DNA of 63,043 nt, the filler included, from Reclinomonas americana ATCC 50394 (Eukaryota), in NCBI GenBank assembly GCA_048213135.1. It is 6 parts of 2 records of this genome, joined end to end, with 100 filler letters (N's around TTAATTAATTAA, not from the genome) between each part and the next. Parts side by side here need not be neighbours in the genome. Positions count along the whole stretch, not along the records: positions 6,700 to 23,086 come from PS015128.1; positions 23,187 to 38,414 come from PS015128.1; positions 38,515 to 54,394 come from PS015129.1; positions 54,495 to 58,615 come from PS015129.1; 2 more parts are not named here. One strand, given 5' to 3'. The notes under the pieces are model-generated. The model was not told the origin of the DNA and made no database searches. It saw only the letters and a program-made list of their open reading frames with translations. Below, piece by piece: positions 22,446 to 58,050 of this stretch; the first letter of the stretch is position 1, and every line of letters starts with the position of its first letter. The position numbers and the translations under genes are program-made.

Positions 22446-23409
22446 TCACGTCTCATACCTCGGAGCGCCCACCTGCCCCAACTCTCTCAACGGCTCACCC
22501 CTCGACGGTTCCCTCGACGAACCGCGCGATCGCTGCCCGCGCGTTGCCGACCCCGCCCTTCCTGTCGCCGTTCCAGCAGTGCCACCGGCCGCGGCCGTCG
22601 TTCCTGCCGGATACAAAAACGGCTTGTCCTCCTGCTTTGCCAGCAAATTGCGCTTCTCACGGGCGTTTTGCGCCTGTGCACGCTGCCGCTTGTCGGCCGC
22701 AATCGCATCCTCCCGCATCGTTGTCATCTGTCGCTGCTCGCCAACCGCCGTCTCGGCCGCCCGTCCTGCGCGGTGGTACAAGCAAGAGCGTGAGCATGCA
22801 AGTGGAAGCAAAAAGAAAATAGCCACAGCTGCAACGACGCAACTCTGCAGGCGATTGGTCTGCTCTTGCACACGCGCCGTCTGCTGTTGCTGCTGCCGTT
22901 GCCGCTCGCGCTGCATCTTGGCGTCGAGTGCCTCATGCGCCGCCATGGTCTGCCGTTCCACTTGCTCACGCTCCAGGCCGACTTCCTGGTTTCGCCAGTG
23001 TCTCTCCTCTGCAGGGCCGTTGATGAGCACAAGAAGTAACACGAGCTGCTATTCTCTTTTTCTAGTCAGTCCCCCCTCTACTTTCGNNNNNNNNNNNNNN
23101 NNNNNNNNNNNNNNNNNNNNNNNNNNNNNNTTAATTAATTAANNNNNNNNNNNNNNNNNNNNNNNNNNNNNNNNNNNNNNNNNNNNCAACCCACTGTTTC
23201 TGGAGTTCTTCTCCGTTTTCTCTCTCATAATCCTCGCTCAGGCAGTCGTCAGTCCTCTCGACTCTGGCCTCTAATTTCGCAACGCACAATTGTCTGGGAG
23301 TTCTTCTCCGGTTTCTCTCACTCTCTCTCTCACACACACACGCCATCTTTGCTCTGTCAGTCATCAGTCCCACTGGACTCTATAAGTCTTTCGGGACACG
23401 TCACTCATT

Positions 23410-23446
<37 letters not shown>

Positions 23447-25862
23447 CTATGCATGATTGACAATTGTGACTAGCCTCACACCTGTCGCTCTCGCCTCGTA
23501 CTCGTCTTCTTCTTCGTCTCTTCTCCCTCCCTTCTCCCCTGCCCCTTCTCCCCCCTCTCCTTCCCCCCGCCCCCCACCCACCTCTTGCCGCCGCATTCGC
23601 CCTGGAAAACTGCTGCTGCACCCGCTTGGCCTTCTCCTCCGCCTTGCGCTGCGACTCACGCTCATTCCTCTCCGCCCGCTTCTGCTGCAGCTTCTCCTGC
23701 AGCTGTAGAATGCGCTCATCGTCCCGCATCTTCTCCTCCGACATTTGCTTGGCGCGCACCGCATGCGACGACTCTCTCCTCTCCTGCGCGTCGCGCTTGG
23801 CCGCCTGGCGGAACTTTTGAATGTTCTCCAACTTGGCCTGCAACTCCGCCTCCCGCTCCTGTTTGTGCGCCACAATCTCCTGCCGCTTGGCCTCCTCCGC
23901 CAGCCGCTGTCGTTCCTTTTCAAACGCCAGCCGCTCGCGCAGTTCCGCCAGCGACATTTCGTTGAGCAGACCAATGCCCGACGACTCGGTGGGGTCGAAC
24001 ACGGGCAGGTTCGGGTTTGGCACGTTTTGCAGGGCGCGGATCTGGCGAATCAGGTCCTCCTTGCGCAGTCGCTCCTCCTCCATTCTGTGGAAGCGGGGGC
24101 GAAGGAAAAAGGATGAGCAAGTGTTGACTTTACCCCCCAAGAACTCGTCAGTGACACCACTCACCTCTGGGCGACCATCATCTCATTCTCGATGCGCTGC
24201 TTCTTCATGTCGGCCGCCTGTGCCCGCCGTTCGTCCTCCAGCTTTTTCCGGCTCTGCTCCAGCGCCTCCTTGGTGGAGCGCGCCTGCTCCTCCGCATCGA
24301 GTCTTCTCTGCAGCTCCGCCTCGGCATCCTGCTTGGCCTTCTCGTCGAGCAGCTCCGCGATTTTTCTCTTTTCACGATCGGCGATTTCGCGATTGTAGGC
24401 CTCGTTGCGCAACCGCGCCTCACGCGCCTCCTCCTCCGCCAACTGCATCTCCAGTTTGCGAGCCTGAATCTCAGATTCGCGTTGCATTTGATCTGCACGC
24501 CAGCTCTATGAGCGGAAGGGAAAGAGCGACAAAGCAAGGCAGTAAATGCAGCCACGCACCTCGTAGTCTCATGTCTTCCTGCCACTCGGAGAATTCGGAG
24601 GCGTCACGCAAATCCTGCTCGTATGCCTTCAGTGCCCGCGCTTCCTCATCTTGCTTCTTCTTGTACACGGCGTCTTCTCGCAAAATCGCCGCGGCATTCA
24701 GCTTGACCTGCGCCCCCGAGAATTTGGAGAGACGACCGCGCACTTTTTCCACATCCGGCACCTCACGCCGCTGCGGCGCCGTCTCCATCAACTTGGCCAG
24801 ACGTTCCCGCTCCACCTCCTCGCGCAGCTTGTCAAAGTTGCTCGGTCGTGTCGATGTGTGCAATTTGGGCGCCATGTCAGGCAGCACGCGTGGTGGTGCC
24901 TCGCCACCCTTGCGTGCCACGGTGGAGACCGGCTGCTCGACGTGATGAGAAAGAGGAATAAACAAAGGAGAAAGAGGTGGGGGTGTGCACACCTTGCGCG
25001 TCTCTCTAAACGCCTTCAGTGCCTCCTCCGTGTGTGCGGGGGCCTTGTAGGTCGATTTGGGAACGGGTTTGGACTGCGAGGCAAATAATTTGCTCAGCAC
25101 ACAACCGACCGGTTGAATACTAAGCGTCACTGTTTTCCCCTCCTCACCTCAAACGGCTCACTCAGCGGTTCCGGCTCTGGCACCGCTCGCGGCTTCGGTC
25201 TCGTCAAGTGGAATGGCTGCGGCACCGTGGTCTTGGTGGCCGTTGCTTCGGGCGTATCCGCCGGCGACGGCCGCCGTGAGCCACTGACCTCCTCAGTCAG
25301 CGCCAACAGGTACTGCTCCAGCTCCACACGCTGATTCTCCACCGGCTGCACCAGCGAGTCCTGAATCCACTGCGGATCGTACAACAGCTGCCATTGCGCG
25401 CGCAGTCGCTGGTCCACAATCTCGCGATCCAGCATGAATTTCAGAAATGGTTGCGCCTGCCCCCCAGTGTGAGAACCGACAGGGAGGGTGAGAATAGAGC
25501 AATTTGTTGTCGACATACCTTGAGGGAGGTTTGCGAGTTGCACAGCATGCGGAACGCCGGCATGCCGAGCTCGCTCAGGCGGAACAGCAGCAGGTAGGCC
25601 AGCACTTGGTACATCAGTCGATCGCCATTGGCCGCACCCGTCTGCACCTCGTAGTACTCTTTGACGGTGGACTGCGAGAAGGGCAATGAGGGAAGGGCAA
25701 GAGAGGGTGACGAGGAGGAATCGTGGAGACAAATGGACACATGGAACACAGGGAGCATATGCGAGAGAGAAGGGGGGGGTACAAACCTGCAGCAGCTTCT
25801 TGTATCGATAATGACCAGTGACCACTTGCTGGATGAACACGGCATCGTCCTCGTCGGTAATC
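22446..25862 (-). CDS. CFAP99: Cilia- and flagella-associated protein 99 (5' end in gap)
   Basis: Family motifs TVPQPFHLTRPKPR.VPEPE, KLNAAAILREDAVYKKKQ, LRDASEFSEWQ and DLIRQIRAL...FDPTESSGIGLLNEMSLAELRERL. The exon ending at 23582 splices in phase 1 to 23008 (E-ERHWRNQEVG) across the gap, which links the 22446-23008 exons to this gene. Confidence 0.85.
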
Positions 25863-26352: not shown

Positions 26353-29300
26353 ACGACGAGGCCATCCTGGAGCTGTTGAAAAAGGCCGAGGCACTGACGG
26401 AGCCAACCGTGGGCAAGTTCCCCAAGCGCCTCATGCTCCGCGCGGTGACCTACAACAATTTGGCACTGTACTTTAAGCGACGCGGCAAGGTGAGCGCGGC
26501 TGTGCGCTACGCGCAGCGCGCACTGAAAATCGAGGAGGAGTTCAAGGAGGCCGACAACCCAGCGGCCACACAAATCAATCTGGGCTACTATTTGTTCGCG
26601 TTGGACCGATTCGAGGAGAGTCTGCCGCACACTCGCTCGGCGCTCGACTTGCTGACGCAGGAGGAGCAGCGGTATCGCGCCACCAGTCACGGTACGTCTC
26701 TCTTTTTCCCTCTCTCTCGCTCTCGTGTTCTTTCCTTTCCTCTCTGCTGTTATGCTATGTTGTTTGTCTAATCTCAGGTATCCATTTTCGTCATCCTGTC
26801 TTGCTCCGTGCTCCCGTCACTCGCTTCCCTTCTCCCTCTTCCCCCTTGCTCTTCTCCTTTGCTCCTCCTTCTCCTTCTCCCTTCTTTCTCTACCCCCTCC
26901 TTCTCCTTCTCATTCCCTTTCCCCTTCTTCCTCCCGTCCAGAGGCCGACGCCCCCGCGCTCCCCGCCGACCTATACCCCATGCTGTGCATGACCAACCAC
27001 AACCTTGGGTGCGCGCTGGACCGCCTGGGCCGCGTCGACGAGGCACTCCCGTACCACGAACTGGCCAACCAGCTGGCGGTGGAGCATTTGCCGGCACAGC
27101 ACCCCGTGCGCGAGCGCCTGCACGCGGCACTGGTGGAGTCGAAGCGACACATTGACGAGCGCGAGGCGCTGTTTGTGCGTCGCCAGCGGAGGAAGCGCGA
27201 GGTGGCGGCACAGCCGGCCATCTCGCTCGGTTCGATGAACAGCGAGGCCGGTTTCTTGCCACCGATTCAGACGTCGTCGCCGGGTGTGTCGCGTCCGCGC
27301 TCCGTCGCCAGCTCGGCCATGGGTCGGCTGGTGGAGTTGGACGGGCGATCGCGCCCCGGCACCGCCGCCTCGGCCGCCTCCACGGTGGCCATCTCACAGC
27401 AGAAGCGGTACCAGACGGTGTTGTGGCGCGCCGGTGTGGCGCACACGATGAAGCGCGAGGACAGCGCCAAGCGGATTCAGGCCGCCTGGCGCTCCTTTAT
27501 GGTGCGCAAGCGCAACGCCATGCGTGAGGGCGAGGCGGTGCGCAACGAAGCGTTGCGACGGATGCGCGAGGAGTTGGTTTCGGGACGCCAGCGCGCCGGT
27601 CTGCCTCGCAGCACGGCCAGTCGCCGTCGCGAGGCCGCCGTGGCCATTCAAGCGGCGTTTCGTGGATTCCTGGTGCGCTCGCGGTTGCCACCAGACTTTT
27701 TGCCGCGTTCGCGGTGGAGCTCGCAAGTGTCGGATGTGTTCGATTCGGCCGTGCGACCACCACCACTGCGTGTGTACTACTCGCAGCACCGCAATCAGTC
27801 GCCAGTGCGAGGTGAGTGGTGGAGGCGACATGAAAAAAGAATAGGGGCAGGTGTTTAATGCTCACTCCCCGTCCTCATACAGGTGCACCGTCGTCGCCAC
27901 GCATGACCAGCTCGCTGGAGGTGCCGGTGCGTGTGCCGGCCTCCCGTCTGATGGGTTCGTCCGCCGATTCAGGCGCACTGCAGTCCACTGGACCTGTGCC
28001 GCCGCAGAAGCCAACAGTGGTCTCTCCGCGTGCTCGCCGACGTGTGCCAGCCGCGGCGCAGGCAGGGGTGAGTGACGGGAAAAGAAGATGAAGATTTCTT
28101 TCTGCCCTCTTTGTCTCACTTTCCATTTCCCCCGCAGCTCAAGAACCAAACCGTTGCTCTCCGTCGTTCCGGTCTCTTCTCCTCCGAGGTCCGCAAGTGG
28201 CAGCCGGAGGAGAGCCGTGGTGCCAAGAATCGCAACATGGCGGTGCAGGCGGTGCGCGACTACCGCAAGGACGTGCTGGCGCGCAAGGCCGCCGTCAAGA
28301 TTCAGGCCACGTGGCGCGGCTACTGGTCCAACGAGAGTGCGCGGAGGATACGCGCGGCCAAGCTGTTTGCTGCCGCCGCAAAGATCCAGGCGGCGTTTGT
28401 CGGCTGGAAGACTCGTGTTTACATGCGCGCCCTGCACAAGGCCGCTGCGGTGTGCCAGTCGAGTTTCGTCACGCGATGGAAGCATGATCTGCGTTTTTGT
28501 AGTGCTGTGTGTCTCAACGCCTTTGTGTGTGCCAGTGATTCGTCGCCGACTGGAGACCAAGCGTGTGCACCTGCTGATGGCACAGGCATCGCTGGTGCAG
28601 TCCATGGCTGCGGCTGTGGTGGCCCGTCGCACCGTGTCGCACTGGCGGAGGAACCTGTTCCGCGTGCAGGCCGTCATCAAGGTGCGTGTCAAGCCATCCC
28701 TTTATTCCCTCTCATCCCTTTTCTCGTCTGTTCATCTCCCCTTCCCCCGTTGTAGTCGTTTGCCGTTCGCTGCCGCCTCAAGCGGCAACATCGCATGGCC
28801 GCCCGCATCCAGGCCACCTGGCGCGGTCACCATCAGCGCATTGTGGAGCAGGAGCAGCACGAGGCCATGCGCAAGGTGCAAGTGGCGGTGGCTCGCTGGC
28901 GCGGAAACAAGCGCGACGCCGTGGAGAATGCCAGCGCGCGGCTGATTGTGGCCACCTTCCGTGGCTGGAAGGAGCGCACGCACTTCTTGGATCTGCAACG
29001 ACAGGCCACGCTGGTGCAGGCGGCCATTCGCGGCAAGTGGGCATTCGATCAGTGGCAGTTGCAGCGGCAGGCGGCGATGAAGCTGCAGTCGGTGATGCGC
29101 ATGTTCAAGCAGCGCAACGTCTACCAGCGTCACATGCAGCTCATCCGTTACACGCAAGCCTGCTTCCGCCGCAAGGTGTACCAGCAGCAGCATCAGTTGC
29201 GCCTCGGTGCCGTCCTGCTGCTGCAGAAGACGGCACGCATGATGTGGGTGCAGAAGCACATTACACGCGTGCACAAATCAGGTGCGTTCGTGCTGTTGTT

Positions 29301-32300
29301 GCTGAGTGGCTTTGGTTGATGGTCGACTTGCCACTCACTTTTTCATGTTACTTTTCTCCCCCTCTGCGTCACAGTCACTTCATTCCAGCGCTTCACACGG
29401 GGACGCCAGTCGCGCATGCACGAGTACCGGCGGTACATGGGTGCCGTCAAGATGCAGGCACTGGTGCGGAGCCACCGCACGCGCAAGATGATGAACAGGC
29501 GACATGGAGCGGCACTGGTCATTCAGTATCACTGGCGCCAGCTGCAGAAGCGCCGTTTGCGTGTCATTCAGACGGCGGCCGTCATGGTGCTGCAGAGACA
29601 CTGCCGTCGCATTGTCGCGCGCCTGCGCACTGCTCGTCGTCTGCAGGCCGCCCTTCGCATGCAGAAGTGGATTCGGTGAGCCCCTATCTCTCGTCTCCCC
29701 TCGCCCCCTCTTCTACTCACACTGTCTTCACCCACACAGTCGCTTCCTGGTGGCCTCTCGTCTCAAGCGTCTGCACTCAACGGCCACTCGCCTGCAGGCC
29801 TCGGTCAAGCGGTGGATTGGTCGGCGGCGGTTCTCGCGGTCACGAGCTGCCGCCATCACTGTCTTCCGTTTCGTGTCGAGCTTTGTCGGCAAGCTGCAGT
29901 TTGCACGTCGCCGGCGCGCCGCCATTCGCATCCAGTCGTTCTACAGGACACGATTGGCCAAGCGGTGAGCGTCTCTTTGCGCGCACGTTATCTCATCTTA
30001 TTCGTCTAGAGTCTCACCATTCGCCGCCAGGGATTACGCACGCAAACGCCATGCCGTGGCCAAGATCGAATACTGGGCGCAGATCTGGAAGACCAAGGCC
30101 GTCATTCGCCGACAGCACGCTGCGGCCGCCACCCTCCAAGCGTGGGTGCGCAAGTTGCAAGTGCAGAAGCGTCTGCGCAACAAGCGCGCTGCTACTGGTT
30201 TGTGCCAGTCGCCTATTTGTGTGTCTGGTGCTGTGCTTGCTTCAATCAAATAACGCTCTATTTGTTTGTTTCCCACCTCGCAGGCAAGATGCAGTTGTGG
30301 TGGCGCGACTGCCTGGCCTACATGCGTGCACAGCGTCGCAACAAGGCCGCCATCGACATGCAGCGTGCCGCTCGCGGCTTCCTGGATCGTCGTCTGGTGG
30401 CACGTCGCATGGCTGCCGCCTTGCAGATGCAAAAGGTCGCCCGGCGCTTTGTCGGTCGTCTGCGTTTCCGTTGCGTCCCCTCCGTTGGTGTCTTGACTTT
30501 GTGATGCTTGTGTGTACTCACATTTCCTTTGCTCTCCGTGCAGTCAAGGCACGCCGTGCAGCCACGCTGCTGCAGAGCCGCTGGCGTCTGTACCGCGTCT
30601 TCAAGTGGTTTGTGCGCGAGTTCCAGGCGACGCTACTCATCCAGACGCAGTTCCGCCGCTGGAAGGCACTGCGCGAGGCCATGCACATTCGCAAGTGTGT
30701 GTTTTTGCTGCAACGAATTGCTCGTGGCTTCCTGGCGCGTGTGCGTGTGCGCAAGCAGCGTGAGGCCGCGGCCAAGATCGAGCCGTTTGCGCTGCGCATG
30801 GTGTACTCGGCGCGCTTCAAGGTTTGTTTTTGCAATCAATCTTTTTGCTTTTTTCCCCTTCTCTTCTCCTGACACATTTCCCCTTGCCGCAGAACGCCCG
30901 CTCGAGTGCCGTTTGCTTCCAGCGCGTGTTCCGTGGCTTCTCGGAGCAGATGAAGTGGCGCGGCTTCCGCGCGCATGTGGTGAATGCCCAGTCGATGGCC
31001 CGCCGGTGGTTGGCCCAGTTCCGTCTGCGCCGTGCCCATCGCTCGGCGACGCTGGTGCAGCGCGTGTGGCGTCGCTTTGCCGCCATGAAGATGGTGCACA
31101 AGGTGTGGCCGCAGGCCGCCCTGTGCATCCAGCGCGCATGGCGCGGATTCAGCATTCGCCGTCGGCGTGCCCAGTTTGCGCGTGCCATTCTGTCGCTTCA
31201 GTTTGTGTACCGCAATGCCGTGGCTGTTGCGTGCGACAACACGAGTCTGTCATTTTATCTCGCTCTGTTCCCTCATCTCCGACTCCCCTCTCTCGCATCG
31301 CAGCGCTTGGAGGCCGAGAAGCGGCGTCGCATGGAGCTGGCCGCCCTGGAGGAGTTGCAGGCGGCGGAGCTGGCGGCCGAGTTCCAGCGCAAGTCGCAGG
31401 CGGCCACCATGATCCAGAAGCGCGTGCGTGGTCTGCGAGCCCGTGCGCGCCTCACCGAGCGACACGTGGCGGCGCGCTACCTGCAAGCGTTGTACCGCGG
31501 TCGTCGTGCTCGTCTGCAGTTGGTCGCCGAGCGCAAGCTGCGTGAGAGCGTGCGTGCTGTGGCCCGTGGTCTGCTGGCGCGCCTGCGCCTCAAGATGGCG
31601 CACCGTGCCTGCACCAAGATTCAGGCCATTGCCCGCGGCAATGTGCAAGTTCCGTTCACCACCTCATTCATACACCAACTACGGTTACTTACCTTTTGTT
31701 TCTTGTGTGTAGCGCGCCTCGTATCAGCGACAGCGTCATGCAGCCGTGCGCGTGCAGCGAGTGTGGCGTCGCTTCGTGGCCGTGCGTCGCTTCAAGGACC
31801 TGGTCGGCTCGGTGTGCCGTGCCAACGCGCTGGTGCGCGCGCTTCTGAAGCGCCGCTGGTACACACGCACCGTGTTGCCGGCGGTGATCAAGATGCAGGC
31901 ACTGGCACGCAGCTTTGCTGTGCGCCAAGTGATGGCCTCTCGCCACGCCGCGGCGACTCGCGTGCAGCGCTTCTTCCGCGCCCGTATCAGTCGCCAGCGG
32001 CTGCTCGAGCGCGACGAAAGCGCCCGCCTCGTGCAGCGCATGTTCCGTGGCCACCTGTCGCGTGCTTCTGTCGACCATCATGAGGCGGCTGCGAATCTCA
32101 TTCAGAGCGCCGTGCGTCGTGCCATTGAGGCGGTGAGTGCCTTGTTGACCCGGTCGCCTTGCGCGGTGCTAGTGGCTCTTGCTCATCCATTGAATCTCGT
32201 TTCGTTTGCGCGCAGCGTCTTGTGCAGCGCCAGTTGCACGCCGTTACGTGCGTGCAGGCTATTGTGCGCGGCAAGTTGGATCGCCGTCGTGTGGCCAAGC

Positions 32301-35300: not shown

Positions 35301-35468
35301 ACCTCAAGTGCGTTGTCGTCCCTCGCCTTCATTTTTGCTAATCTATCATTGACTCACACTCTCTTTCATTTGTGCCAGCATTTTCCGCGGCGCTCTGTCT
35401 CGCGTGCGTCCCGCTCAGGGCTTCACGCCGGTGGTGCAGCAGGCGGTCGCGCGTTCGTCTCGCCGCCG
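26353..35468 (+). CDS. Very large protein with N-terminal TPR repeats and dozens of IQ calmodulin-binding motifs (ASPM-like IQ array); both ends lie in gaps
   Basis: TPR-like segments AVTYNNLALYFKRRGKVSAAVRYAQRALKIE and CMTNHNLGCALDRLGRVDEALPYHELA. Repeated IQ motifs such as IQAAWRSF, IQAAFRGFLVR, IQATWRGY, LQRIARGFLAR and IQAAWRGLRLR across many short exons. Confidence 0.85.
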
Positions 35469-36340
35469 CNNNNNNNNNNNNNNNNNNNNNNNNNNNNNNN
35501 NNNNNNNNNNNNNNNNNNNNNNNNNNNNNNNNNNNNNNNNNNNNNNNNNNNNNNNNNNNNNNNNNNNNNNNNNNNNNNNNNNNNNNNNNNNNNNNNNNNN
35601 NNNNNNNNNNNNNNNNNNNNNNNNNNNNNNNNNNNNNNNNNNNNNNNNNNNNNNNNNNNNNNNNNNNNNNNNNNNNNNNNNNNNNNNNNNNNNNNNNNNN
35701 NNNNNNNNNNNNNNNNNNNNNNNNNNNNNNNNNNNNNNNNNNNNNNNNNNNNNNNNNNNNNNNNNNNNNNNNNNNNNNNNNNNNNNNNNNNNNNNNNNNN
35801 NNNNNNNNNNNNNNNNNNNNNNNNNNNNNNNNNNNNNNNNNNNNNNNNNNNNNNNNNNNNNNNNNNNNNNNNNNNNNNNNNNNNNNNNNNNNNNNNNNNN
35901 NNNNNNNNNNNNNNNNNNNNNNNNNNNNNNNNNNNNNNNNNNNNNNNNNNNNNNNNNNNNNNNNNNNNNNNNNNNNNNNNNNNNNNNNNNNNNNNNNNNN
36001 NNNNNNNNNNNNNNNNNNNNNNNNNNNNNNNNNNNNNNNNNNNNNNNNNNNNNNNNNNNNNNNNNNNNNNNNNNNNNNNNNNNNNNNNNNNNNNNNNNNN
36101 NNNNNNNNNNNNNNNNNNNNNNNNNNNNNNNNNNNNNNNNNNNNNNNNNNNNNNNNNNNNNNNNNNNNNNNNNNNNNNNNNNNNNNNNNNNNNNNNNNNN
36201 NNNNNNNNNNNNNNNNNNNNNNNNNNNNNNNNNNNNNNNNNNNNNNNNNNNNNNNNNNNNNNNNNNNNNNNNNNNNNNNNNNNNNNNNNNNNNNNNNNNN
36301 NNNNNNNNNNNNNNNNNNNNNNNNNNNNNNNNNNNNNNCC

Positions 36341-38414: not shown

Positions 38415-38528
38415 NNNNNNNNNNNNNNNNNNNNNNNNNNNNNNNNNNNNNNNNNNNNTTAATTAATTAANNNNNNNNNNNNNNNNNNNNNNNNNNNNNN
38501 NNNNNNNNNNNNNNGTTTGTTCGTTCTT

Positions 38529-38603
<75 letters not shown>

Positions 38604-38708
38604 TCCTCCCTCAGATGCACAGCCTCCTCTTGTTCTTCTTCTCGTGGACAACTCATTCCATTTCCCCACTTCTCCCCTTCTCCCTTCCCCTCCCGTCCCC
38701 TCCCCCAG

Positions 38709-44700: not shown

Positions 44701-47700
44701 GGTTCGCAGACTCTTGTGGGCGGCAGCGTGCTGTTGGATCACGTCGGCAACTTTGTGGAGGCCTTCTCCGTGCTCTCGGCCGACCTGTTTGGCGAAGCCG
44801 GTCCGCTCACCGCGGCGCAGCGGCGCGCTCAACAATGCCGCTGGTGATTGTTTTGTGCTCTCACTCGTGTTTGTGTGTTGTGTCTCTGCTGTCCGTAATC
44901 TTTGCTCTCGCCATGCAGTGCAACCATCATCAAGTGCGTCCAGTTTGTGACGTTCCTGCTCGATCACCACCGCTCGTCCATTGTGCGTCACGCGGTGCTC
45001 GGCACCGACTTTTTCCGGTGCGTCCTTGTATTTCGTCGCGCACGCACTTTTCCCATTCTCCTGAGCGCACCCTTGTGTGTCGTCGCAGGATGGTGGTCCG
45101 CGCTGTGCTTGATCCGACAAGTCTCGGCTTCCAGGTCGACGACACCACCAGCCTTCGACGTCTGCGTGCGTCTTGTACCGAATGGTGCCGGCTGGTGGTC
45201 AATCTGCCGGCAGAGGTCGCGGCTGTGCGCGATGATTTTCTCGATCTGCTGCGCTTGATGTTGGCGCTGCCCGAGTACGCGTTGCACACGCAGCGCCTGT
45301 TTGGACAAGGTATTTTGTCGCAGGGAGAAACATTATTGGAGCACGCCCTCACATGTTGTCGCAGAGATGCACTTGGCGCACGTGAGCAACGTCGCCAATG
45401 GCCACCTGCTGCTGCAGCAGACATTGGGGACGGCGATGCTGTTGTGCCTGCCGATTGCGGCCGACGAGGTGTGCCAGCGCGTCTCGAAACAACTGCTGGG
45501 CTGTGGGGTGAGTTGCCACAGAAACCGAGAGGGAAGCGATTCATCTTCACGCTCATCCTCCCTTGCGTTTTCCACAGATTCTGCCGCCCGAGCAGCGGCA
45601 GCTGGGTTCCGATCTGCTGGAGTTTGTGCTGGCCATTCACAACGACGACGCACTGCTATTTTACTGGCTGATGGACGACACACCGGAGAAATTGCGCGGT
45701 GTGCGACGCAGACGTCGCGACAGTTTCGGCAGTGGAGGTCAAGTGGTGCGGCAGCCCAGCTTGGACGGCGACGAAGAGCAGGTGGTGCTGCCTGAGCTGC
45801 CCCGTGGCGAGGTGTTTTACTTGAATTTCAAGCGCAAGGTGAGCGCGCCTTCGAGGTATTGTGCTGTGCTAGCCAAGCAACTGAAAAATGACGCAGATTC
45901 TCGAGCGCGTTGGTGGCAATCTGTCGCTGCTGCCGCAACTGTTCCGCAACTGCCTGCAGAAGCCGTTCCTGTTCCGCCTGTTGAAGCATTTGTCGGAGCA
46001 TCTGCGATCGCGACAGTCGTCGGCGCTGGTCGAATACGTGCAGCAGGTCCGCGAGTCGCTGCCGCGCCAACTCGACGACATCTATCGCATGCCACGCGAT
46101 ATGAGCCGCATGACACTCCAGCGCTCCATCCTGTCGTACCTCGAGAGCCTCTACCTCATCTCCTCCAGTGCACTGGGCGACGCGACGTGGATCAACCTCG
46201 GCTCCCTCGTGCGATTGTTGCGTTGCTCAGCAGCAGTCTTGGGAGACTCACCACACTGATTTGCATTCTGTGATGCTCCACGCAGCTACTGCTGCTGCCT
46301 GGAGCGAGTCGCTGAAGACCGCAGCGTGGAGATCCCGCTGCGCCTGAAGGCTCTCGGCCAGCTGCATCACCTATTGTCTCTCGAGCAGGAGGCACAAATG
46401 GATCCGTCGCTTTCGGGTCTCCTGTTGACGCTGAGGTTTGTGTGCATAGATGTCTTTGTGCGTGTGTGGCCACCTGCCCATCGCCGCACTCCACACGCAG
46501 ACCACTGGTGGAGGCCATTCGCAGCATTGTCAATGACGAATTCCCCTCGAGTTCGCACGAACTCGACGAGGGCTCCACCGGCTACAAGGAGTACATTCTT
46601 GTGCTCGACACCATCATGTCGCTTCTCGTGCGCAGCTCTTCTGCCTCGCTTCTCGACGTGGTGCTGCCGGTGTTGCGCGAATCCAATCATCGCCACGCGC
46701 ACGAGATCAATGAGGTGCCGTTGTGGATGCATGGCTGAAGCATGCGGGTTGCTGACGGGGAGTTGTCCACAGAAACTGGTGTCGTTTTTCTCGGAGATGC
46801 CACGTGCGCGCGTGCCCTACGTGGCCAACTACTGCTTCAGCAAGTTCTGGATGCAGTCGTACCCGGCCGAGTTGCGGCTTGCCGTCACCGAACGCCTCTT
46901 GTCGGCCTCGGTGTCCAACTTGAGCAAGGAGGTGCGTCGCAAGCGGACTCACTGCTGCCTGCTCGTCGTCACCCATCTCACGATTTTATTGCGCAGCAAG
47001 GAAAGCTGTTCTTTGCTGAGCGCATTCTCGAGTTGATGCAGCGGTACCAGGATCTGACGGCGGTGGGCGCACGACCGCCGCTGCGAGTGGAGTATTTGGA
47101 AGAGGTCTCGTTTTGCATTCAGCGTTCGTGTGATGTTTTGGCAGCTGACGAGCAGTGTGTGACCAGTTGCAATCGCACTACGTCAGCAAGATTGGCATTC
47201 TGCAGCTGCTCGAGGCGCTGTATACGACTGTCGACCACGAAGACATCAAATCGACCGTCAACAAGGCCTACATGCGCGACAACCCAGCGGCCAAGGGCAC
47301 CGAGCTCACCGGTGCCGTTGCGTTTATTGTTCCCTTCTTCTTCCATTGTGTGTGTACGCACCGGTCGCTAACCCACGCCGCAGATCATGAAAAAGATGCT
47401 GGAGACGCTGGGCGAACGAGTTCCCTTTGCCGAGGTGGAACTGGTCGGCCACGTGCTCGAGCACAAGGTGTGTTCCATCATCCGCTGTCGGCTTTAATGT
47501 GTCGGCGACTCTGACTGCGCAGTGGCACAGTTCAAGTGCGCCGCCTACAACGCCCTCGCTGCGTGCATCTGCACACAAACAAAGCCGCAGCTGTACGAGG
47601 CCACCGTCCTCAAACCCGATCACTTTGACGAGATTGTGGATCCGCAGGAGGCGTACCACTTTGAGGTGCGGCGTGCTCACCACGTGTGTACGAGTGCGTC

Positions 47701-50700
47701 TGCTGACAATGTGTCTGTTAGGCCGAAACGGACTTTGCGTACACGCGCAAGTCGGTGGCCTCGCTGAAGGAACGACTGCCGGACGACCTGCGCGACACGC
47801 GCGAGTACTTGTCGTTTGAGTACTTCAAGGGCACCATGACGCAGGATGCGAACGCGTTCTTCGCCCACTCGTCTCTTTCCGTCGACCCCGAAGGCTCGCT
47901 GAAGGGCATGTTTGTGGTCAACAAGATGGCGCACGCCACCGTGTTTCGTTTCCTTCCCCTCGCCTACGTGTGCATGAACGGGCTTGGGTACTGATTCATG
48001 TCACGCAGTACCGAGTCTGGCGACACGCAAGTGATTGAGGGCTTTGAGGAGAAGCTCGAAATGGACCCCGTCAACCTCAATCCGTCAATGTTCTCGGTGC
48101 TGCGCAGTATCGACCGCATGGCGGTCATTACCAAGGATGAGCCTCGGTGCGGCCCACTGTCGACCTGTGTGGTTGTGTGTGAGTGCCATGCTATAGCCCT
48201 CACGGATTGCATGCATGTCTGTGCAGTACCGACGTGCTGCCAAAGTGGCAAGCTGGTCTCTTCCAGAAGATGCGCGACGAGGAGACGCACCAGAATGTCA
48301 AGCTATTTATCGCAAAGGTGTGTCGGTGTGGGTATCCATCCACTGCTGACCACTGCTGACGACGTGCTGCAGCTGATTCTCTTGCGGTCGGCCGTATTTG
48401 CGCCGTATGCTGGCGACTGGATGGGCCCGCTCGCCGCAGTCGCCACCTCGGATGCGTTTGGCACGGTGCGCATCGCTTGCCTTTTGTGCGGTCGGCACGC
48501 ACATGTCCCAGCTCACTCTGTGTACTCGCACAGGGCCTGCACTACTTCAAACGCGATGTCGCTCTCCAGTTGCTGGAGTGGAGTGCCGATGTTCCGCGCA
48601 ATTCGACAACGGCGCGCCTCCTGAGTGCCTTTGTGCAAAACCTCATGCGCAACTGCGTGCATCTGCGTTACCAGGTGCTCATCGCCAACATCAACATTAT
48701 TCGGTTCATGGTGGAGCGCTGGTCCGAAGTGCTGTCTGTCAACACGGCGGTGTGTGCATATGTGTGCATGGCGACGTGGCGGAAGCATGATGTACTCACA
48801 CAGTCACACGCGACGACAGTTGCTCTCGACCTTGCTTCAACCAGACGCCGCCATGCCAGCAGCCGACGAGCGGCAAACGCGTGTCACTGGTCTCCACTTG
48901 CTGGCGGTATGTGTGTATCGCATGTGGCCATTTGTGTCTGTCAACCCCTTCATCCACCTTGATGCAGATCTACCTGGCCAACGACATTCCGGTGTTTGAT
49001 GTGCTCGCCGACTCACCGCACGCCTTTCAAGTGTTCCTCGATGTGGTTTCGTGGCGCCAGAATGTTCCATGTCGCTTATTTGTCGTTTGCCGCTGACCGT
49101 CGACTCCACAGGTGGCACGCAATGTGGCGCACCTGCAAAAGCGCGTGTACGAGCCGGCGGCTGAGGTGTGCGGTCTGCTGATTGAGCATTTGCACAAGCT
49201 GGCGGGTGTGTGGACCACAATGTGTTGTTCCCAATTGATTGCCACACACCCACACCCTCGATGCACTGTGCTGCAGCATTCGACATGGCGACGCACTTGT
49301 CGCAGCGCGTGACTGCATTCGTACGGGAGGCGTATCAGAAGAGCGATTACTCGCGCTTCCTCAACCAGCTCAACAAGATCAGTCTGCACTCGCCGCGCAT
49401 GCTGGAGGCATTTGTGACGCAAGTGCAAGACACGGTGCCGAAGTTGCACGGCAGCTACCGGTGCATCACGCTGATCGTCATCATCGTTCTTCCCACAGTT
49501 TTGTTGTTGCTCACTCGGTGTTGCGCACAGAGGCATTGCGCTGGCGATTTTGTCTCGTCGCGCCGACCAGATTCCCAACATGTACCTGTATCTGCAGCCC
49601 AATCTGGAGCGCTTCCTCGTGCTGCACGATCCCGACACGCAACAATCGGTGCTGCGCGTACTCCTCGCGTTGTTGCGGGTGAGTGCGGGCGTGGAGAAGA
49701 GTGAGTGATACAGAAAAGCTCACTCGCGATGCAGGTGGCCACACTCGACGACCTTACGCACATGTTGCGTGTGCTCGATCGGTGCACGGCCGACCGGGAT
49801 GTGTTCCTGTTGCGTTTCATTTGTGCTTGCTTGTGAAGGTGCAGTATTGACTGTTGCTTGCGAATACCAGTGTCCAATTCGACGAGCCCACACGCCTGCT
49901 CTTGTGCGATGTGTTCATCTGGCTGCATGACAATCGACGTGACTTGCCTCCCGATCTGCGTCAGACGGTGCACAATAATCTGTTGCGTGCCACTCCTCTG
50001 CTCTCCGCCGCCCAAGTCCTTTCATCGTTCATTCTTACAATCGTGCATGGTTAGTTTGCGTGCATTGGCCGACGACGGCTCCGAGAAAGTGCGCGATCGC
50101 GCATTTGCGTTCTGGGACAACCCCGAGCGCCTGTCACCGGCCATCAACGAGAGGACACAGCAGGTGTTTGAGAAGTTGTACTCGTCCGACTCGTCCCCGG
50201 TGTGGCTGCGCATGTCGGCAGCATTGCTGCTGTCGCTGCCGAGAACGGCGCCCGACTACACCGAGAAGACCGTCTTCAACAAGGGTGCGGTGACGGCGAA
50301 GAACCCTTGGATCGATTTTTGAGCTTGCAGTCGCTGACTCTGTTGTTGGGGATGCCACAGAGCCACTGTTCCAGTGCGAGTTCCGCGAGTACAACATTAG
50401 CATTTCCGACGAGACGCGCACGTCGACTCTGCGCCCGCTATTTGGCGGCGGCAGCTTTGTGGGTGTCGACGCACATGCGGTGTGTGATGCACACATGGTT
50501 AGATGTCAGGAGCACAGGCTCATTGCTCTCTCGCACAGGGTGGTGGTGCATCGCAGAATCTTGGCGATATTGGCATGCTTCTGGCCACTCCACAGTCGGT
50601 GCGGCTGTCAGTACATGTGTGCATTGACATAGCACGCAGTACTCACTGTTCATGCTGAGTGCAGGCGACTCAAGGTGGCACCAATTCGTATGGCATGTCG

Positions 50701-53700
50701 TTCTCCATGACCAGTCTGCTGATCGAGCCAAACAAGCGAGGTGTGAACGACACGCAGAGAGTGCTTGCTGTCGACTTGTCAATCAATTTTGCGCCCCTCG
50801 CAGTGTCGCCATTTGCCCGATCAGCGGCGGCCGCTGAAGCGAGCCGTGCTGCTGGCGCCTCTCCGTCCATGGGTCCTCCGGGAGCTGCGTCGTCGTCGGC
50901 ACTCAATGCCACTCTGCCGGAGGGCTTTGCACGGCAGCAGCGCTCAGNNNNNNNNNNNNNNNNNNNNNNNNNNNNNNNNNNNNNNNNNNNNNNNNNNNNN
51001 NNNNNNNNNNNNNNNNNNNNNNNNNNNNNNNNNNNNNNNNNNNNNNNNNNNNNNNNNNNNNNNNNNNNNNNNNNNNNNNNNNNNNNNNNNNNNNNNNNNN
51101 NNNNNNNNNNNNNNNNNNNNNNNNNNNNNNNNNNNNNNNNNNNNNNNNNNNNNNNNNNNNNNNNNNNNNNNNNNNNNNNNNNNNNNNNNNNNNNNNNNNN
51201 NNNNNNNNNNNNNNNNNNNNNNNNNNNNNNNNNNNNNNNNNNNNNNNNNNNNNNNNNNNNNNNNNNNNNNNNNNNNNNNNNNNNNNNNNNNNNNNNNNNN
51301 NNNNNNNNNNNNNNNNNNNNNNNNNNNNNNNNNNNNNNNNNNNNNNNNNNNNNNNNNNNNNNNNNNNNNNNNNNNNNNNNNNNNNNNNNNNNNNNNNNNN
51401 NNNNNNNNNNNNNNNNNNNNNNNNNNNNNNNNNNNNNNNNNNNNNNNNNNAGGCAGAACTGGGATGGGGAGGCATTGTGCATCTCTCACTCGATACGTTG
51501 TGTTGCAGGTGGCGGTGGTGCGTCAGTATCGCTCCGGCGAGTTGCCCGACATTCAGATTTCGATGCGCGATCTCGTCGAGCCACTGCTGGTGCTGGTGAT
51601 GCGGTGAGTTGGTCGTCGCGCGTCATCGGAAGTCTTGCGGGACTCGCATTCACTCACCATGTGTATGTTACAGCGACACATCGGTGGCCCGCTTCCTGTT
51701 GACGATGATGTTCCAGAAGGTGGTGGACGTGGTGCGCGGCAGCAATCGACTGGGCGTCGAGCGCTATTACGAGCTCGTGTCGGCGGTGCAGAGCGTCATC
51801 TCCTCCAAGATGCTGACCTCGGGCGAGGTACGAAGGCCTCCCAATCTCGTTCATCTTTTTGTCACTCACCTGTCCCCGTTTGTGCGCAGCTCAATGCACA
51901 GCTGGTGGCCTTTGTGCACTCGCTGTGCCTGGCTGTGGAGGAACTGGAAGTCGATCCAGTCAAGGTCGCCGACTCGTCGACGAGGACGACCAACTTTCAC
52001 CTTGGTTTGTGATAGAGGGGGAGAGCATTCCTCCACTCTGTTGGACCATCCTCATCCATCTTCTCCTCTCCCATCCTCTCACGCACCACAGGCGTGCTTC
52101 TTCTCGAGAATCGGTACGCCCGTGGCTTGGAGGAGTTGGAACGTGTTCGATCTGCCCCACCGCCCAAGAAGCGCGCTCGTGGCAGCGACCCGACGTTGCG
52201 TCACGTGTGTGTGTTTGAACACGAGCGAGAAAAACTCACCACTCCACAGTCGTCGTGCACTGGCACAAGCGCCTTCGCTCGGATCGATGCTGTCCGAGTC
52301 ACCGACTCTCGCATCCTCCGGCACACTGACGGAGGAGGACCTGCAGCGCAGCAAGCTGATCGCCGATGCGGCCGAGCACTTGGATGAGGCTGTGCTGTGG
52401 CGCAAGGTTATGAGGCATTCTCTCGTACAGGCACTGCTGCGTATCGCTTACCGTGTGTTTTGGCAGCTGTCTGAACTGTACAACCACCTTGGCAATGAGG
52501 ATGTTGTCACTCACATTTACAAGAGTCACGTGGCCGCCGAGTCACAGGAGGCTCAGGTGGCCCTCGACTTTTTCTTTGCCAGTGAGTACAACGAGTCGCG
52601 GGAGCAGTTTGCAGCGTTGCGTGGCCAGTGTGGTGCGTGTTACGAATGCATGATGCTGACAAGAGAGGGGTTGGAAACAGAGCACTGGAGAGGGAGGATC
52701 CTGCCTCGCCCAATGCGGCCATTTGGAAATCGTTGCGTGCAGGACGTGCCGCCGGTGGCTTATCGCTCGTGATCCACTCACATACCCCTATCGTGCGGCA
52801 GCATGTGGAGATCGTGCTGTGCGAGGCTGGGCGACTGGGACCAGATTGCCGACGACTGGGTGGCAGCGTCATCCGGTGGCCAGCAACTGCGGCAACTGTT
52901 TGATGACAGCGCCCCCATCCCGCTGGCCGAAGCGGTGCAGTCGATTGTGCGCGCCGAGGGACACGACGATGTGATGCAACGGTGCGCACGACGGAACAAA
53001 TTGCATGTTGTTGCAGCGCTCTGACTCTGTGCATGGGGCAGGTTGCTGGACTTAGCCAATCGCGATCCGCAGTGCCGACAGAAACTCGAGGATGTCAGCA
53101 GTCGCGATCTTGCCCTGTTTATCATCAAGCAAGGCAGTCGCGAACAGCAGGCGATTGAATATGTTCGCAAGTTGCGTCACCAACGAATGCGTTTTGTTTT
53201 GCGCACTCCATCCACTCAATTGCTAATGTTGCGGTGGTTGGCAGATTTGAGCAGGGCTTCTTGGAGGACTGGACTCTGCTGCCGACGCTGAATGAGCGTG
53301 GCCGCATTTCGCTGCTGCAATCGGTGCAAGAGGCGGTGGAAGTCGATGAGTACTTGTCGTTGTTCCGCGTGCACGAGATCACAAAGCCGGCAGAACGCGC
53401 GTCGTTGGTTCGCCGTCTGCTTGCACGATGGCACAATCGCTTCCCCTCTCGCTCCCTTGACTCCACATCGGTGTGGGCCTCGGTGCTGTCGACGCGTGTC
53501 CTGTTGCTCGAGCGCCTCTCGGCCAAGATCGAGACATTTGTTGGCGACGCCGAGGGCGCTGCCGCCGCAAATCTGGACGACAGCGGCGTCGTGGCAGATG
53601 GCGAGGAGCCCGTCGATCTGGTCGGCGACCTGCAAGATTTGTGCGAGGCGGAAATTGTACATGCGCGGCTGGAGACGGCCGACGCTGCGCTGCAGCAAGG

Positions 53701-54394
53701 GAATGCGGAGCTGGCCGCCACCGTGTGCAACGAAGTCAAAAAGGTATGGCTGTTTGTGTTGGTGGAAATAATTGTGGGTTCTCCCATGCCAATCCTCGCC
53801 GATTGCAGCAACGTTCGTTCGCGACGGTGCGACGCACCTATCCGTTCCTGGTTAGCGCCATTCGCCACTCCACCATTCAGGCACTCAAGTTCGACGGTCC
53901 CAGTGTGGAGGAGGCCTCGTTGCGTGCCATTCGCTTTCTCTGTGCTGCTGCATCAGCATGAGCTCACTGTCTCTGGTTGATAGATCGCGCTTCAAGAATC
54001 TGCGTCTGGTGGCCTCGACCTTGGAGAAAACGGTGGACACGGAGGCATTCCGCGAGCCGCGGACACACGTTGCGTACTTGACGTTGTATGCGTCGACCAT
54101 GAAGTTTCGTTTCACACCACTATCGGGGAGTTTTCGCATGTACGCTAACCTGCGTGCCTTTAGCACCTATGCCGAGCAAGTGGGAACCCTGGACGATGAC
54201 ATCAGGCCAGATGTGGAGCGCGAGATCAAGGCTGCGGTGCCGGCGGCATCGGACCTCCGACTGAAGGCACAGCAAATGTACCAGCAGGCCGTGACGGAAC
54301 TCGGCGAATTGTTGACCGGCAAGAATCCGAGTTGCGACAGATAGCGCGCACTGGTGCTGTCAGTGATCGCGTTTGCTCACCTCACACCACAGGC
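38709..54394 (+). CDS. PRKDC: DNA-dependent protein kinase catalytic subunit (HEAT repeats through FAT region; the kinase/FATC end is not present before the gap)
   Basis: Colinear DNA-PKcs motifs: [147 protein letters not shown] and [11 protein letters not shown]. Confidence 0.95.
43926..43997 (+). tRNA. tRNA-Ile(UAU), intronless, nested in a DNA-PKcs intron
   Basis: Cloverleaf: acceptor GCCCCCG/CGGGAGC (one C:A mismatch), D loop with TGG, anticodon stem TTGGT/GCCAA with loop CT-TAT-GA, T arm GCGGG-TTCGACC-CCCGC, discriminator A. Confidence 0.92.
44003..44023 (+). terminator. RNA polymerase III oligo-dT terminator of the tRNA, overlapping the intron's 3' splice region
   Basis: T7-A-T7-A-T5 run just after the tRNA, directly followed by the AG acceptor at 44024-44025. 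Confidence 0.8.
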
Positions 54395-54540
54395 NNNNNN
54401 NNNNNNNNNNNNNNNNNNNNNNNNNNNNNNNNNNNNNNTTAATTAATTAANNNNNNNNNNNNNNNNNNNNNNNNNNNNNNNNNNNNNNNNNNNNAGAGAC
54501 GAGTGCGTGTATGCAGGACGAGTCGGACGAGTGATCATCA

Positions 54541-56186
54541 ATGAGCGACTTGAGAGAATGCATTCAGCGCGGCGGCTTTGTGGTGCTTGATGGAGCCATG
54601 GGCACTGAGCTGGAGGCGCGAGGGGTATGTGTGTGTGTGTGTGTGTGTGTGTGAGAGTGTGAAAGGTGTATGCTTGTGCAGTTGTCACTGGATCGGTGCA
54701 TTTGGTCGGCGGTAGCGCTCTTGTCGGAGGAGGGGTGTCGATTGGTGCAGCAAGTGCACGAGGATTACTTCATGGTGAGAAGGAGGGGAGGGAGAAGGAG
54801 GGAGAAGACGAAGAAGAGAAGGACGTGGAGGAGAGAGAGAGAGAGCGAGAGAGAGCCGTGATAACCCATGCTTCCTGCGCTGTTGTCATTGCTGTCGCCC
54901 ACCTCTCGATGACTCGACTCGGTCCTTCTCTCTCTCTCTCTCATATCTCATCTCATTCTCCTCATTCTCCCCCACAGGCCGGCGCCAATGTGGCGACCAC
55001 CGACTCGTACCAAGTTGCGCAGTTGTTACGCTCGTCAGCAAGCTTTTCTCCGCTCATCGCTGTCATCAGGTCAGTGAGGAGACGTTTGTGCAGCGACAGG
55101 GCGACGGCGATCGTGCACGTGCACGTAAGGAGGCTATCGCTGCTGCGAAACGCAGTGTGGAGCTGGCTGTGGCGGCACGCGAGACCTGTCGTGCAGCGTG
55201 TCACCAGCCAATGTGGGGTGCATGCATCTCCCTCTATCTCTCTCCCGCTCTCGCTGCGTGTCACCACCCTTCTGAAATCGTCGCGCGCAGTGGCTGGGTC
55301 GGTCAGCTCCTATGGTGGATGTGACGGCAAAGGCGGCGAGTTTGTGGGCAACTACGGCAGTGACGCGACGATGGAAACCCTGATTGAGTTCCATCGTGCG
55401 CGAGTGCGACCGCTGATGGAGGCTGGAGCTGACTATATCGCCTTTGAATCGTTGCGTTGCGATGTGGCGGCGGCTTGTCGACGTTGCCGTGTCCTCATTC
55501 TCAACTTATTCGCAGAGGTGTGCTTTGGTGCCGAAAAAAAGGTTGATTCATGAGTATTGCTGATCGTGTCTGCTTGGCGGCAAAGTGCCGAGTGGATTAG
55601 AGGCGAAAGCGTTGCGGGTTGCGTACCATGCGTCCGCTGCGAATAACGTTGTCTGTGCTGACATCGTGCGCAGCGCTTGATCGAGACCGACGGTGTGGTG
55701 TGCACGGTGGCCTTCACTTGTAGCGACGAGGCACACTTGTGCGACGGTACTCCATTCGTCGAGGCCGTGCGGGAGATGCGCGAATGCTCGCCGGAGCGGC
55801 TCCTGGCCTTTGGCATTAACTGGTACGTGGGAACGCACGCACACTGTGCGTAGAAGACCAAGTATGACTGACTTGTCGACAGCACAAATCCCGGTTTTCT
55901 CCCGGCCCTCTTGCGCTGTGCGGCCGCCGAACTTGTCGATTCGCCGCACACGCTCCTCGTGTATCCCAACACGGGCGAAACGTGGCTCGGCGTCGCGCAG
56001 CAGTGGGGCAGCGGTGGCGACAGTGGGTGTGCGTGGGCGACTTCCGACTTGAACGCCGCGATTGCACAGTCGGTGCGCGAATGGTTCGAGGCCTCTGGCG
56101 GTCGCTGTCGTGTGTTTGGTACGTGTTGTCGCACTGGGCCACGGCACACGGCCGCCGTGCGAGCGGCTGTGGATGCACTACAGTGA
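54541..56186 (+). CDS. Homocysteine S-methyltransferase family protein (MmuM/HMT-like)
   Basis: Motifs VVLDGAMGTELEARG, WSA.ALL, VHEDYF.AGA.V.TT.SYQ, FHRARV, ADYIAFES, GINC (split by an intron), LLVYPNTGE and G.CCRTGP; three Zn-ligand cysteines are present. Confidence 0.92.

Positions 56187-57376: not shown

Positions 57377-57524
<148 letters not shown>

Positions 57525-57931: not shown

Positions 57932-58050
<119 letters not shown>

Follow-up and report, generated by a model that had tools for sequence, protein, structure and literature searches.

Which signals mark the beginnings of introns in Reclinomonas americana ATCC 50394, and which RNA reads them? The question is raised by a stretch of 63,043 nucleotides (nt) from GenBank assembly GCA_048213135.1, referred to below as the window, in which an initial annotation had listed 22 introns that begin with GTTNCG, mostly GTTGCG, usually behind an exon base other than G. 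These donors had been described as the normal donor with one extra T, read in a shifted or bulged register of the U1 and U6 small nuclear RNAs (snRNAs) or by a variant snRNA, and as a major splicing mode. Here, we find that the class exists and is abundant, that it has exon-side and +7 preferences of its own, and that its introns are otherwise ordinary. The reading that we favor, and to which we would give about an even chance of being right as a whole, is that these are genuine major-type GT-AG introns cut before GTT, that two donor grammars are in use, and that the RNA within the small nuclear ribonucleoprotein (snRNP) U1 pairs through its 5′ end with the second of them one position out of register.

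Throughout, a class donor is GTTGCG or GTTTCG, an ordinary donor is one with G at +5, and a slash before or within a motif marks the exon–intron boundary. Introns were called with two gene models. The first, which is donor-agnostic, was trained on the window itself and accepts any intron of the form GT or GC to AG, using Markov models only, one that is codon-periodic and one for introns; the second adds first-order donor and acceptor weights learnt from the donor-agnostic predictions. An initial gene model built on codon usage alone was dropped, as it was noisy, called genes on the antisense strand, and missed exons. From three plus-strand and three minus-strand genes, we then assembled a curated set of 115 N-free introns, with two homology-based edits.

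The hexamers at the 22 listed coordinates are indeed GTTGCG (20 sites) and GTTTCG (2 sites); the base at +7 is T in 20 of the 22, and the preceding exon base is other than G in 20, as it also is in 23 of the 24 class introns of the curated set. The donor-agnostic model predicts 84 N-free introns on the plus strand between 26355 and 55322, and GTTGCG is the donor hexamer that it chooses most often, 11 times as compared with the 1.5 expected from its share of GT sites (35/1963; Poisson P = 5.4e-7). The initial annotation had made the class depend on an enrichment of +6G among GTT donors, and this is present: 16 of the 31 donor-agnostic donors that start with GTT have it, against 90 of the 362 remaining GTT sites (P = 0.0026). 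In the curated set, class donors account for 24 of the 115 introns (21%), 21 of them with T at +7, next to 64 ordinary donors and 27 others, so that the claimed abundance holds in both sets.

The orientation and context of the motif agree with these counts. Between 26355 and 55900, GTTGCG occurs 39 times in the sense and 19 times in the antisense orientation, and the antisense copies all lie in exon or other sequence; the count over the whole window, 44 on either strand, is uninformative because there are genes on both strands. A crude count of sites with an intron-like tail, whose place was later taken by the gene models, also gave GTTGCG the top fraction (21/44 on the plus strand). The seventh base adds to the signal: in the same interval, 15 of the 23 sense-strand GTTGCGT sites are used as model donors, as against 3 of the 16 sites in which GTTGCG is followed by A, C, or G (P = 0.008). 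It should be noted that sense-strand GTTGCGT at 49764 and 54069 (plus strand) is apparently exonic and unused, or else an alternative donor, and use of 49764 as a donor costs 11.7 bits; given such exonic copies, the motif alone is insufficient.

The two kinds of donor differ sharply on the exon side. G at −1 is found in 1 of the 24 class introns, fewer than the 32% G of exon sequence would give (P = 0.0017), and in 58 of the 64 ordinary ones, where −1G and +5G go together (Fisher 1.2e-14 between the two classes). Among the 45 donors without −1G, 18 read GTTGCGT, whereas the 70 donors with −1G include no GTTGCG and show a broad spectrum (GTGAGT 10, GTGCGC 7, GTTTGT 6, and others). The phase distribution differs as well, with 5, 6, and 13 class introns in phases 0, 1, and 2 compared with 33, 14, and 17 ordinary ones (chi-square P = 0.02), the class being underrepresented in phase 0.

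In other respects, the class introns resemble their neighbors. Their median length is 69.5 nt, as compared with 67.5 nt for ordinary introns (Mann–Whitney P = 0.85), and the base composition is the same; all 24 start with GT, 21 end in CAG and 3 in TAG, and 20 of the 24, as compared with 46 of the 64 ordinary introns, have a branch-like CTVAY motif, which lies roughly 20 nt before the 3′ end. By their ends, branch-like motif, pyrimidine-rich 3′ part, length, and composition they are predicted to be U2-type GT-AG introns. The class donor that had been reported behind the "LL" exon of the array domains was also recovered, in a tandem gene array on the minus strand: five copies there, which fall into two subfamilies that have diverged and whose introns measure 94 or 72 nt, all have the same octamer, GTTGCGTG (20646..20739, ctt/GTTGCGTG, called by the weighted model; 12721-12814; 5640-5733; 9439-9510; 2376-2447). 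Such constancy amid diverged introns and exons is as expected for a signal under selection, although the five copies are paralogues and not independent cases.

Three other kinds of intron were considered and rejected. Minor, U12-type introns have a /RTATCCTT donor and a rigid TCCTTAAC-like branch site; here the donor reads GTTGCGT, and for the branch-like motifs the class shares the loose CTVAY of ordinary introns. Mobile, introner-like introns would share sequence, and there is no similarity among the class introns beyond +8: no 7-mer beyond that position is common to more than 4 of the 24, and those that are common are simple TG repeats. Pairing between intron ends, as in the non-conventional introns of euglenids, was not seen either, the duplex within the same intron having −6.47 kcal/mol and the control with other introns −6.49 kcal/mol.

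The one-base relation to the ordinary donor that had been pointed out before is confirmed when G/GTGCGT is set against /GTTGCGT, with +7T taking the role of +6T. Accordingly worded as grammars, the ordinary one would be a degenerate G/GT-N-N-G(T) that requires G as the last exon base, and the second an almost invariant H/GTTGCGT (H being any base but G), rarely GTTTCGT or GTTCCGT. The ordinary optimum, G-G-T-G-C-G-T, and GTTGCGT differ in a single letter, the second, which is T in the class; the first GT thereby comes to lie one base upstream and the whole signal becomes intronic, with the cut, which follows the first GT, moving from behind the first G of the 7-mer to before it. In the mechanism that we propose, the U1 already resident, or else a paralogue whose 5′ end has been adapted, would pair one position out of register: the +1G of the intron would fill the slot of the exon −1G, +6G and +7U would replace +5G and +6U, and it would then be the GU that sets the cut site, when U6 and U5 come into play. 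With the intron's own +1G in the −1 slot, −1G would be absent and nothing required of the exon; one RNA reading both 7-mers alike would make +6G and +7T matter as +5G and +6T do; and a donor that constrains no exon base would fit the use of the class mainly after first or second codon positions.

Precedents for such pairing exist. Shifted and bulged registers between the 5′ splice site and U1 have been experimentally established in human cells, where the validated non-canonical registers together are put at about 1.5% of 201,541 sites (Tan et al. 2016, PMC4856993). The shifted-register mammalian sites of Roca and Krainer (2009), as presented in PMC4856993, are AAGU-rich, with the model site CA/GUCAAGUAUA. 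The class described here resembles the shifted register of that account in its GU donor, in the +1G that would take the place of −1G, and in the predicted cleavage at the GU; unlike those rare sites, it has one invariant GC-rich heptamer, makes up roughly a fifth of the sampled introns, and is predicted to form poor duplexes with a standard U1, whichever the register.

Which RNA reads the class, and in which register, we infer from base preferences and pairing comparisons. An Rfam scan of the window returned only a tRNA-Ile at gathering thresholds and no snRNA at E-values up to 1; U1 and U6 genes were not found within the window. The comparisons use a generic U1 5′ end, AUACUUACCUG, which may differ from the host's own. 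For the model site CA/GUUGCGUG, this U1 gives −2.5 kcal/mol in the shifted, +3.4 in the bulged, and +4.6 in the canonical register, and the minimum-energy duplex is in the shifted register at 10 of the 24 class sites. The absolute pairing is nevertheless below that of random GT sites, which makes a plain shift no likelier than reading by a variant snRNA or by something else. What is supported is the one-base offset of the signal, for which the resident U1 together with proteins, an adapted U1 paralogue, and later components are all candidate readers.

Several observations weigh against the mechanism proposed above. Scored against the generic U1, the class has an area under the receiver operating characteristic curve (AUC) of 0.28 and a mean of −1.0 kcal/mol, compared with −2.5 for the background and −6.7 for ordinary donors, and the ordinary donors fit the standard U1 best (AUC 0.89, the top of 16 variants at positions 5 and 6). 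A site read by the standard U1 in the shifted register should be AAGU-rich and read like GUUAAGU, not GUUGCGU; +4G and +5C are near-invariant, which indicates a reader other than ACUUAC. On the exon side, plain exon composition (log-likelihood −100.4) fits the class as well as the shifted matrix does (−102.9), so the shift rests mainly on the missing −1G, and not on positive preferences for A or C. One class junction in the repeat array used below to place the cut, at 33385, falls in an irregular interval (44 residues, not 46) and lends no support. The gene models, moreover, are self-trained, at least two intron calls in the same gene were wrong until mended by its periodicity, and the group of 27 other donors surely contains further errors of this kind. 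Finally, six joined contigs with about eight genes make up the sample, from which the "major splicing mode" of the initial annotation is extrapolated.

A second U1-type snRNA or U1 paralogue, with a 5′ end of about ACGCAAC, would pair fully with GUUGCGU and make the class a separate donor type of the major spliceosome, specified by its own RNA, instead of a register error that the resident U1 tolerates. We consider this unlikely, yet a serious candidate, since the class heptamer is near-invariant while the ordinary donors are degenerate, the standard U1 fits the class worse than random GT sites and the ordinary donors best, and +4G and +5C are unlike what a standard U1 would choose. U1 variants with G at position 5 place 17 of the 24 class sites in the shifted register, although their AUC is only 0.63–0.65. 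Matched changes are on record elsewhere: the U1 5′ ends of Entamoeba (ACAAAC) and Mastigamoeba (ACGUAC, with a preference for GUGCGC donors) are described as matching atypical donors, whereas Thecamonas and the Mamiellales are described in the same preprint as keeping a standard U1 despite +4C or GYGCGY donors (bioRxiv 10.1101/2022.06.08.495308), from which it follows that donor composition alone is no predictor of the U1 sequence. The donors of R. americana are like those of Entamoeba and Mastigamoeba, as described in that preprint, in their GC-rich or atypical consensus, which may be mirrored in U1; they are unlike the single consensus shift described there for all introns, as here two grammars occur within the same genes. 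It would be unusual for two functional U1 types to exist side by side, each with a donor class to serve, and the complete division of labor, with a standard U1 reading G/GUNNGU and a second U1-type snRNA reading GUUGCGU one base off for about a fifth of the introns, seems to us slightly less probable still.

The class might instead be read mainly by components that act later or are distinct from U1 (U6, U5, Prp8, or some other protein), as a version of an exon-independent class of donors; we hold this to be quite improbable. In the account of Parker, Fica, and Simpson (2025, PMC11732430), two anticorrelated donor classes, AG//GU and NN//GURAG, are described in humans, zebrafish, fly, worm, and Arabidopsis, and are attributed to U5 loop 1 and to the ACAGA box of U6, respectively. 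The window resembles that system in having exon-dependent and exon-independent donors with anticorrelated sides: here too the class without −1G has the stronger intron-side signal, and its predicted U1 pairing is weak. Unlike the GURAG class of that account, which has +5G, the class here has +3U, +5C, and +6G behind an invariant UGC, with the spacing one base off; its key G is thus at +6, and the GURAG pattern is unmatched. Predicted pairing to a generic U6 box distinguishes neither of the two donor classes from the background (AUC 0.50 and 0.51), a weak test as short helices are poorly modelled.

The other half of the earlier register proposal, pairing in the same register with one bulged U (at +2 or +3) in the U1 and/or U6 helix, fared less well than the shift, and we regard it as distinctly doubtful. 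It would make the donor a GTGCGT with a looped-out T, and GT-T-GCGT is in fact the commonest ordinary donor plus one T; registers with a +2/+3 bulge are given as validated at 54–68 human sites (Tan et al. 2016, Table 3, PMC4856993), and the class is like the sites described there in its one extra U after GU relative to the consensus. Those bulged sites, however, hold the exon side in place. A bulge leaves C9 of U1 free, and −1G would be expected as in ordinary donors; the single −1G among the 24 class introns argues against it, and so do the exon-side log-likelihood, which is −162.1 with the same-register matrix and −102.9 with the shifted one, and the difference of register energies at the model site. 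A few donors do have the form that a bulge predicts: g/GTGCCGT (46715, plus strand; 61629, minus strand) and g/GTCTCGT (47105, plus strand) combine −1G with +5C, +6G, and +7T, and could possibly be ordinary donors with one extra base further in, of a true bulge type. The junction at 46715 is supported by homology (5.9 and 7.3 bits), and on account of the g/GTGCCGT donors both kinds of one-base displacement may occur.

A shift of the signal is to be distinguished from a shift of the cut. The initial annotation had named cleavage three bases downstream (GTT/GCG) as the alternative that would undo the class: the introns would then be GC-AG introns and their exons would all end in GTT, and as such a cut keeps the frame, the frame alone cannot exclude it. 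Two independent rulers were available in the plus-strand genes. For the DNA-PKcs gene (38517..54341), we used a profile of 36 full-length homologues and scored 140-residue peptides for each junction with the exon end at −3, 0, or +3. The cut before GTT outscores the one behind it at all 16 class junctions (by 0.5–7.0 bits, and by at least 2 bits at 11 of them; sign test 3e-5), the +3 position being preferred at none. As this junction test is biased against added residues, a two-sided figure is the fairer one: with a margin of 2 bits or more, the cut before GTT leads over −3 as well as +3 at 9 of the 16 class donors, and the 50 other DNA-PKcs donors behave similarly, 22 of them leading over both neighbors.

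The second ruler is the array of IQ motifs in an ASPM-like gene, which has a strict period of 23 residues over some 60 motifs (28500-34300, plus strand). There are 32 intervals that contain no junction: an exact multiple of 23 is seen in 27, four are longer by one, and one is six shorter. With the cut placed before GTT, the spacing is exact across three of the four class donors in the array (30470, 31226, and 32341) and across a GTTCCGT donor at 31649; the three exact class junctions give a likelihood ratio of about 300 over a cut behind GTT. The interval over 33385, short and not exact, is the one that might be counted for a downstream cut. The period also settles two introns at ordinary donors that the model had called wrongly, 29282-29374 and 30822-30892 being right, and from these two wrong calls the gene models are judged good, not perfect. 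In a GC register, furthermore, nothing would be conserved at +5 and +6, and an exon-terminal GTT would be invariant in all three phases. Cleavage is therefore predicted to fall immediately before GTT, from homology and periodicity alike, and a cut before GC is highly improbable; membership among GC-AG introns was rejected by both rulers.

That the class should be an artefact of wrong gene models, pseudogenes, or mobile introns with a common end sequence is barely credible, for although the models are ab initio with some calls wrong and the assembly is a draft of joined contigs, GTTGCG was enriched before any donor information had entered a model, the junctions are backed by homology and repeat periodicity, no in-frame stop interrupts the IQ gene as corrected or those spliced DNA-PKcs models that were checked, and the introns share nothing beyond +8.

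Site by site, 18 of the 22 donors listed in the initial annotation are supported, two (52195 and the pair 55451 or 55456) are ambiguous, and two (41056 and 55618) are doubtful; the model with donor and acceptor weights chooses 16 of the 22. The ASPM-like gene (26355..35469, plus strand), which was identified through Pfam IQ matches, the gene model, and its periodicity, has six class donors and the one related GTTCCGT donor. Its class introns are 28463..28535 (a/GTTTCGT; motif check and weighted model), 30470..30543 (c/GTTGCGT; weighted model, with an IQ spacing across the junction of exactly 23), 31226..31303 (t/GTTGCGT; both models, spacing 46), 32341..32414 (a/GTTGCGT; both models, spacing 46), 33385..33465 (c/GTTGCGT; both models, with the uninformative spacing of 44 noted above), and 34806..34877 (a/GTTGCGT; both models). 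The related donor a/GTTCCGT, with +5C, +6G, and +7T, begins the intron 31649..31712, which had not been listed before and is supported by the weighted model and a spacing of 23.

The DNA-PKcs gene has about 66 introns, 16 of them with class donors, and was identified from the Pfam families DNA-PKcs_N, CC1-2, CC5, and FAT, from tblastn of homologues, and from the junction test, whose two figures are given in bits in the following. On the plus strand, its class intron 40115..40187 (a/GTTGCGA) is favored by 37 bits over the model's alternative in the DNA-PKcs profile (+2.2/+4.0); another is 40445..40514 (a/GTTGCGT; +6.0/+7.0). A probable class intron that had not been listed, 40696..40749 (t/GTTGCGT), has 2.5 bits over a 42-nt alternative. 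The junction test is uninformative for 40936..40999 (t/GTTGCGT; weighted model), 42772..42838 (c/GTTGCGT; both models), and 53919..53983 (c/GTTGCGT; both models). Two more unlisted introns are 46217..46285 (t/GTTGCGT; both models, +5.5/+4.4) and 49046..49111 (g/GTTTCGT; +4.5/+6.0), the latter being the sole curated member with −1G. Further class introns are 47317..47383 (c/GTTGCGT; +7.3/+5.6), 47943..48008 (t/GTTTCGT; both models), 49809..49870 (t/GTTGCGT; +0.6/+4.2, with the GTTGCGT upstream at 49764 rejected), 49982..50054 (t/GTTGCGT; +5.9/+5.9), and 53171..53244 (a/GTTGCGT; +6.2/+3.4).

In the same gene, the intron at 52195..52249 (c/GTTGCGT) is a probable member, slightly favored by 1.9 bits and avoiding a 43-nt intron. 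The introns 52616..52680 (c/GTTGCGT, unlisted before; +5.7/+3.9) and 52732..52801 (c/GTTGCGT; +3.5/+5.2) both belong to the best of 2987 in-frame local models, by the small margin of 1.2 bits, and the donor at 52732 is probably correct. The listed site at 41056 (41056..41129, g/GTTGCGT) is 2.4 bits worse than the ordinary donor at 41029 (g/GTGCGCC), whose intron more likely encloses it.

The third plus-strand gene, a homocysteine S-methyltransferase (54562..56186; Pfam S-methyl_trans, a match to the solved methyltransferase 5dml_A, and reading frames), has the class intron 55014..55069 (a/GTTGCGC; both models and frames) and a tandem GTTGC-GTTGCG at the intron 55451..55515. The donor of the latter is one of 55451, as in the initial annotation, and 55456, as in the model; the 5dml_A match runs through ...AFESL, which would require an exon up to 55454. 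The listed site at 55618 (55618..55673, g/GTTGCGT) is unsupported, with stops upstream in each of the three frames and a position within the predicted intron 55542-55673; it and 41056 are the only listed sites with −1G. On the minus strand, the class introns 22766..22843 (a/GTTGCGT) and 37373..37434 (t/GTTGCGT) are each supported by three gene models, and a class donor at 62021 is of low confidence.

As to the stretch itself, its gene-rich parts have 55–63% G+C and are eukaryotic nuclear DNA. A linker of constant make-up (44 N, TTAATTAATTAA, 44 N), which has stops in each of the six frames, occurs five times, at 6600-6699, 23087-23186, 38415-38514, 54395-54494, and 58616-58715, and there are additional N gaps; the window is thus a pseudomolecule of at least six joined contigs, and genes on either side of a linker need not adjoin in the genome. 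The DNA-PKcs gene, cut by linkers at both ends, begins directly after one and stops before the next, and it is without the N-terminus and the kinase end. Eleven nt upstream of the predicted stop of this fragment, and 64 nt upstream of the linker, there is an a/GTTGCGA at 54331 (plus strand), from which the donor-agnostic model extends an intron into the linker; the gene therefore probably continues on another contig. Within its predicted intron 43869-44025, on the same strand, lies a tRNA-Ile gene with anticodon TAT (43926-43998, plus strand), which makes the intron unusually long (157 nt).

An exhaustive HMMER search with a DNA-PKcs exon found relatives of at most 60% identity to it, the best full-length matches having 47–53%; those named are from fungi, Naegleria, Entosiphon, animals, a liverwort, and a dictyostelid. 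Homologue searches with a DNA-PKcs exon among proteins of 287 to 2000 residues, and with the methyltransferase open reading frame, gave no match. At 54623-54660 and 54775-54860 (plus strand), introns of the methyltransferase gene contain a run of (GT)n and a long stretch rich in purines (GA/GGA), whereas introns elsewhere are pyrimidine-rich.

Several minus-strand genes have no Pfam match at the thresholds applied. Among these is the tandem array (1-22000), which consists of at least five copies, in two subfamilies, of a small lysine-rich gene with the conserved ...LLNKLLRCNRKR[IV]LVKAFG.... The product of a nine-exon gene at 23479-25952 (minus strand) has 612 residues; its N-terminal part looks conserved, its tail is long, charged, and coiled-coil-like, and it presumably resembles cilia-associated proteins. 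The simple repeats at 57515-57614, 57865-57972, and 58716-58760 give spurious sub-threshold matches to several microRNA families on both strands, and in these simple-repeat regions an (ACGGT)n run begins directly after a linker.

None of the papers listed by a literature search by motif describes a GTTGCGT or GUUGCGU splice donor, although an account in other words in a genome paper is possible. Donor recognition out of register is known only as something that the human spliceosome rarely tolerates; in this organism, a non-canonical donor register would be raised from such tolerance to a second consensus. If so, these genes would offer a natural system in which the cut site can be separated from the binding register of U1, and a test case for U1 paralogues that divide an intron population between them. 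An all-intronic donor may evolve to relieve the coding constraint on the last exon base, as the phase bias hints, and if two U1 types were at work, that base would be freed of splicing constraint. For gene finders trained on donors of the GTRNGT type, about one exon end in five of this genome would come out in the wrong place.

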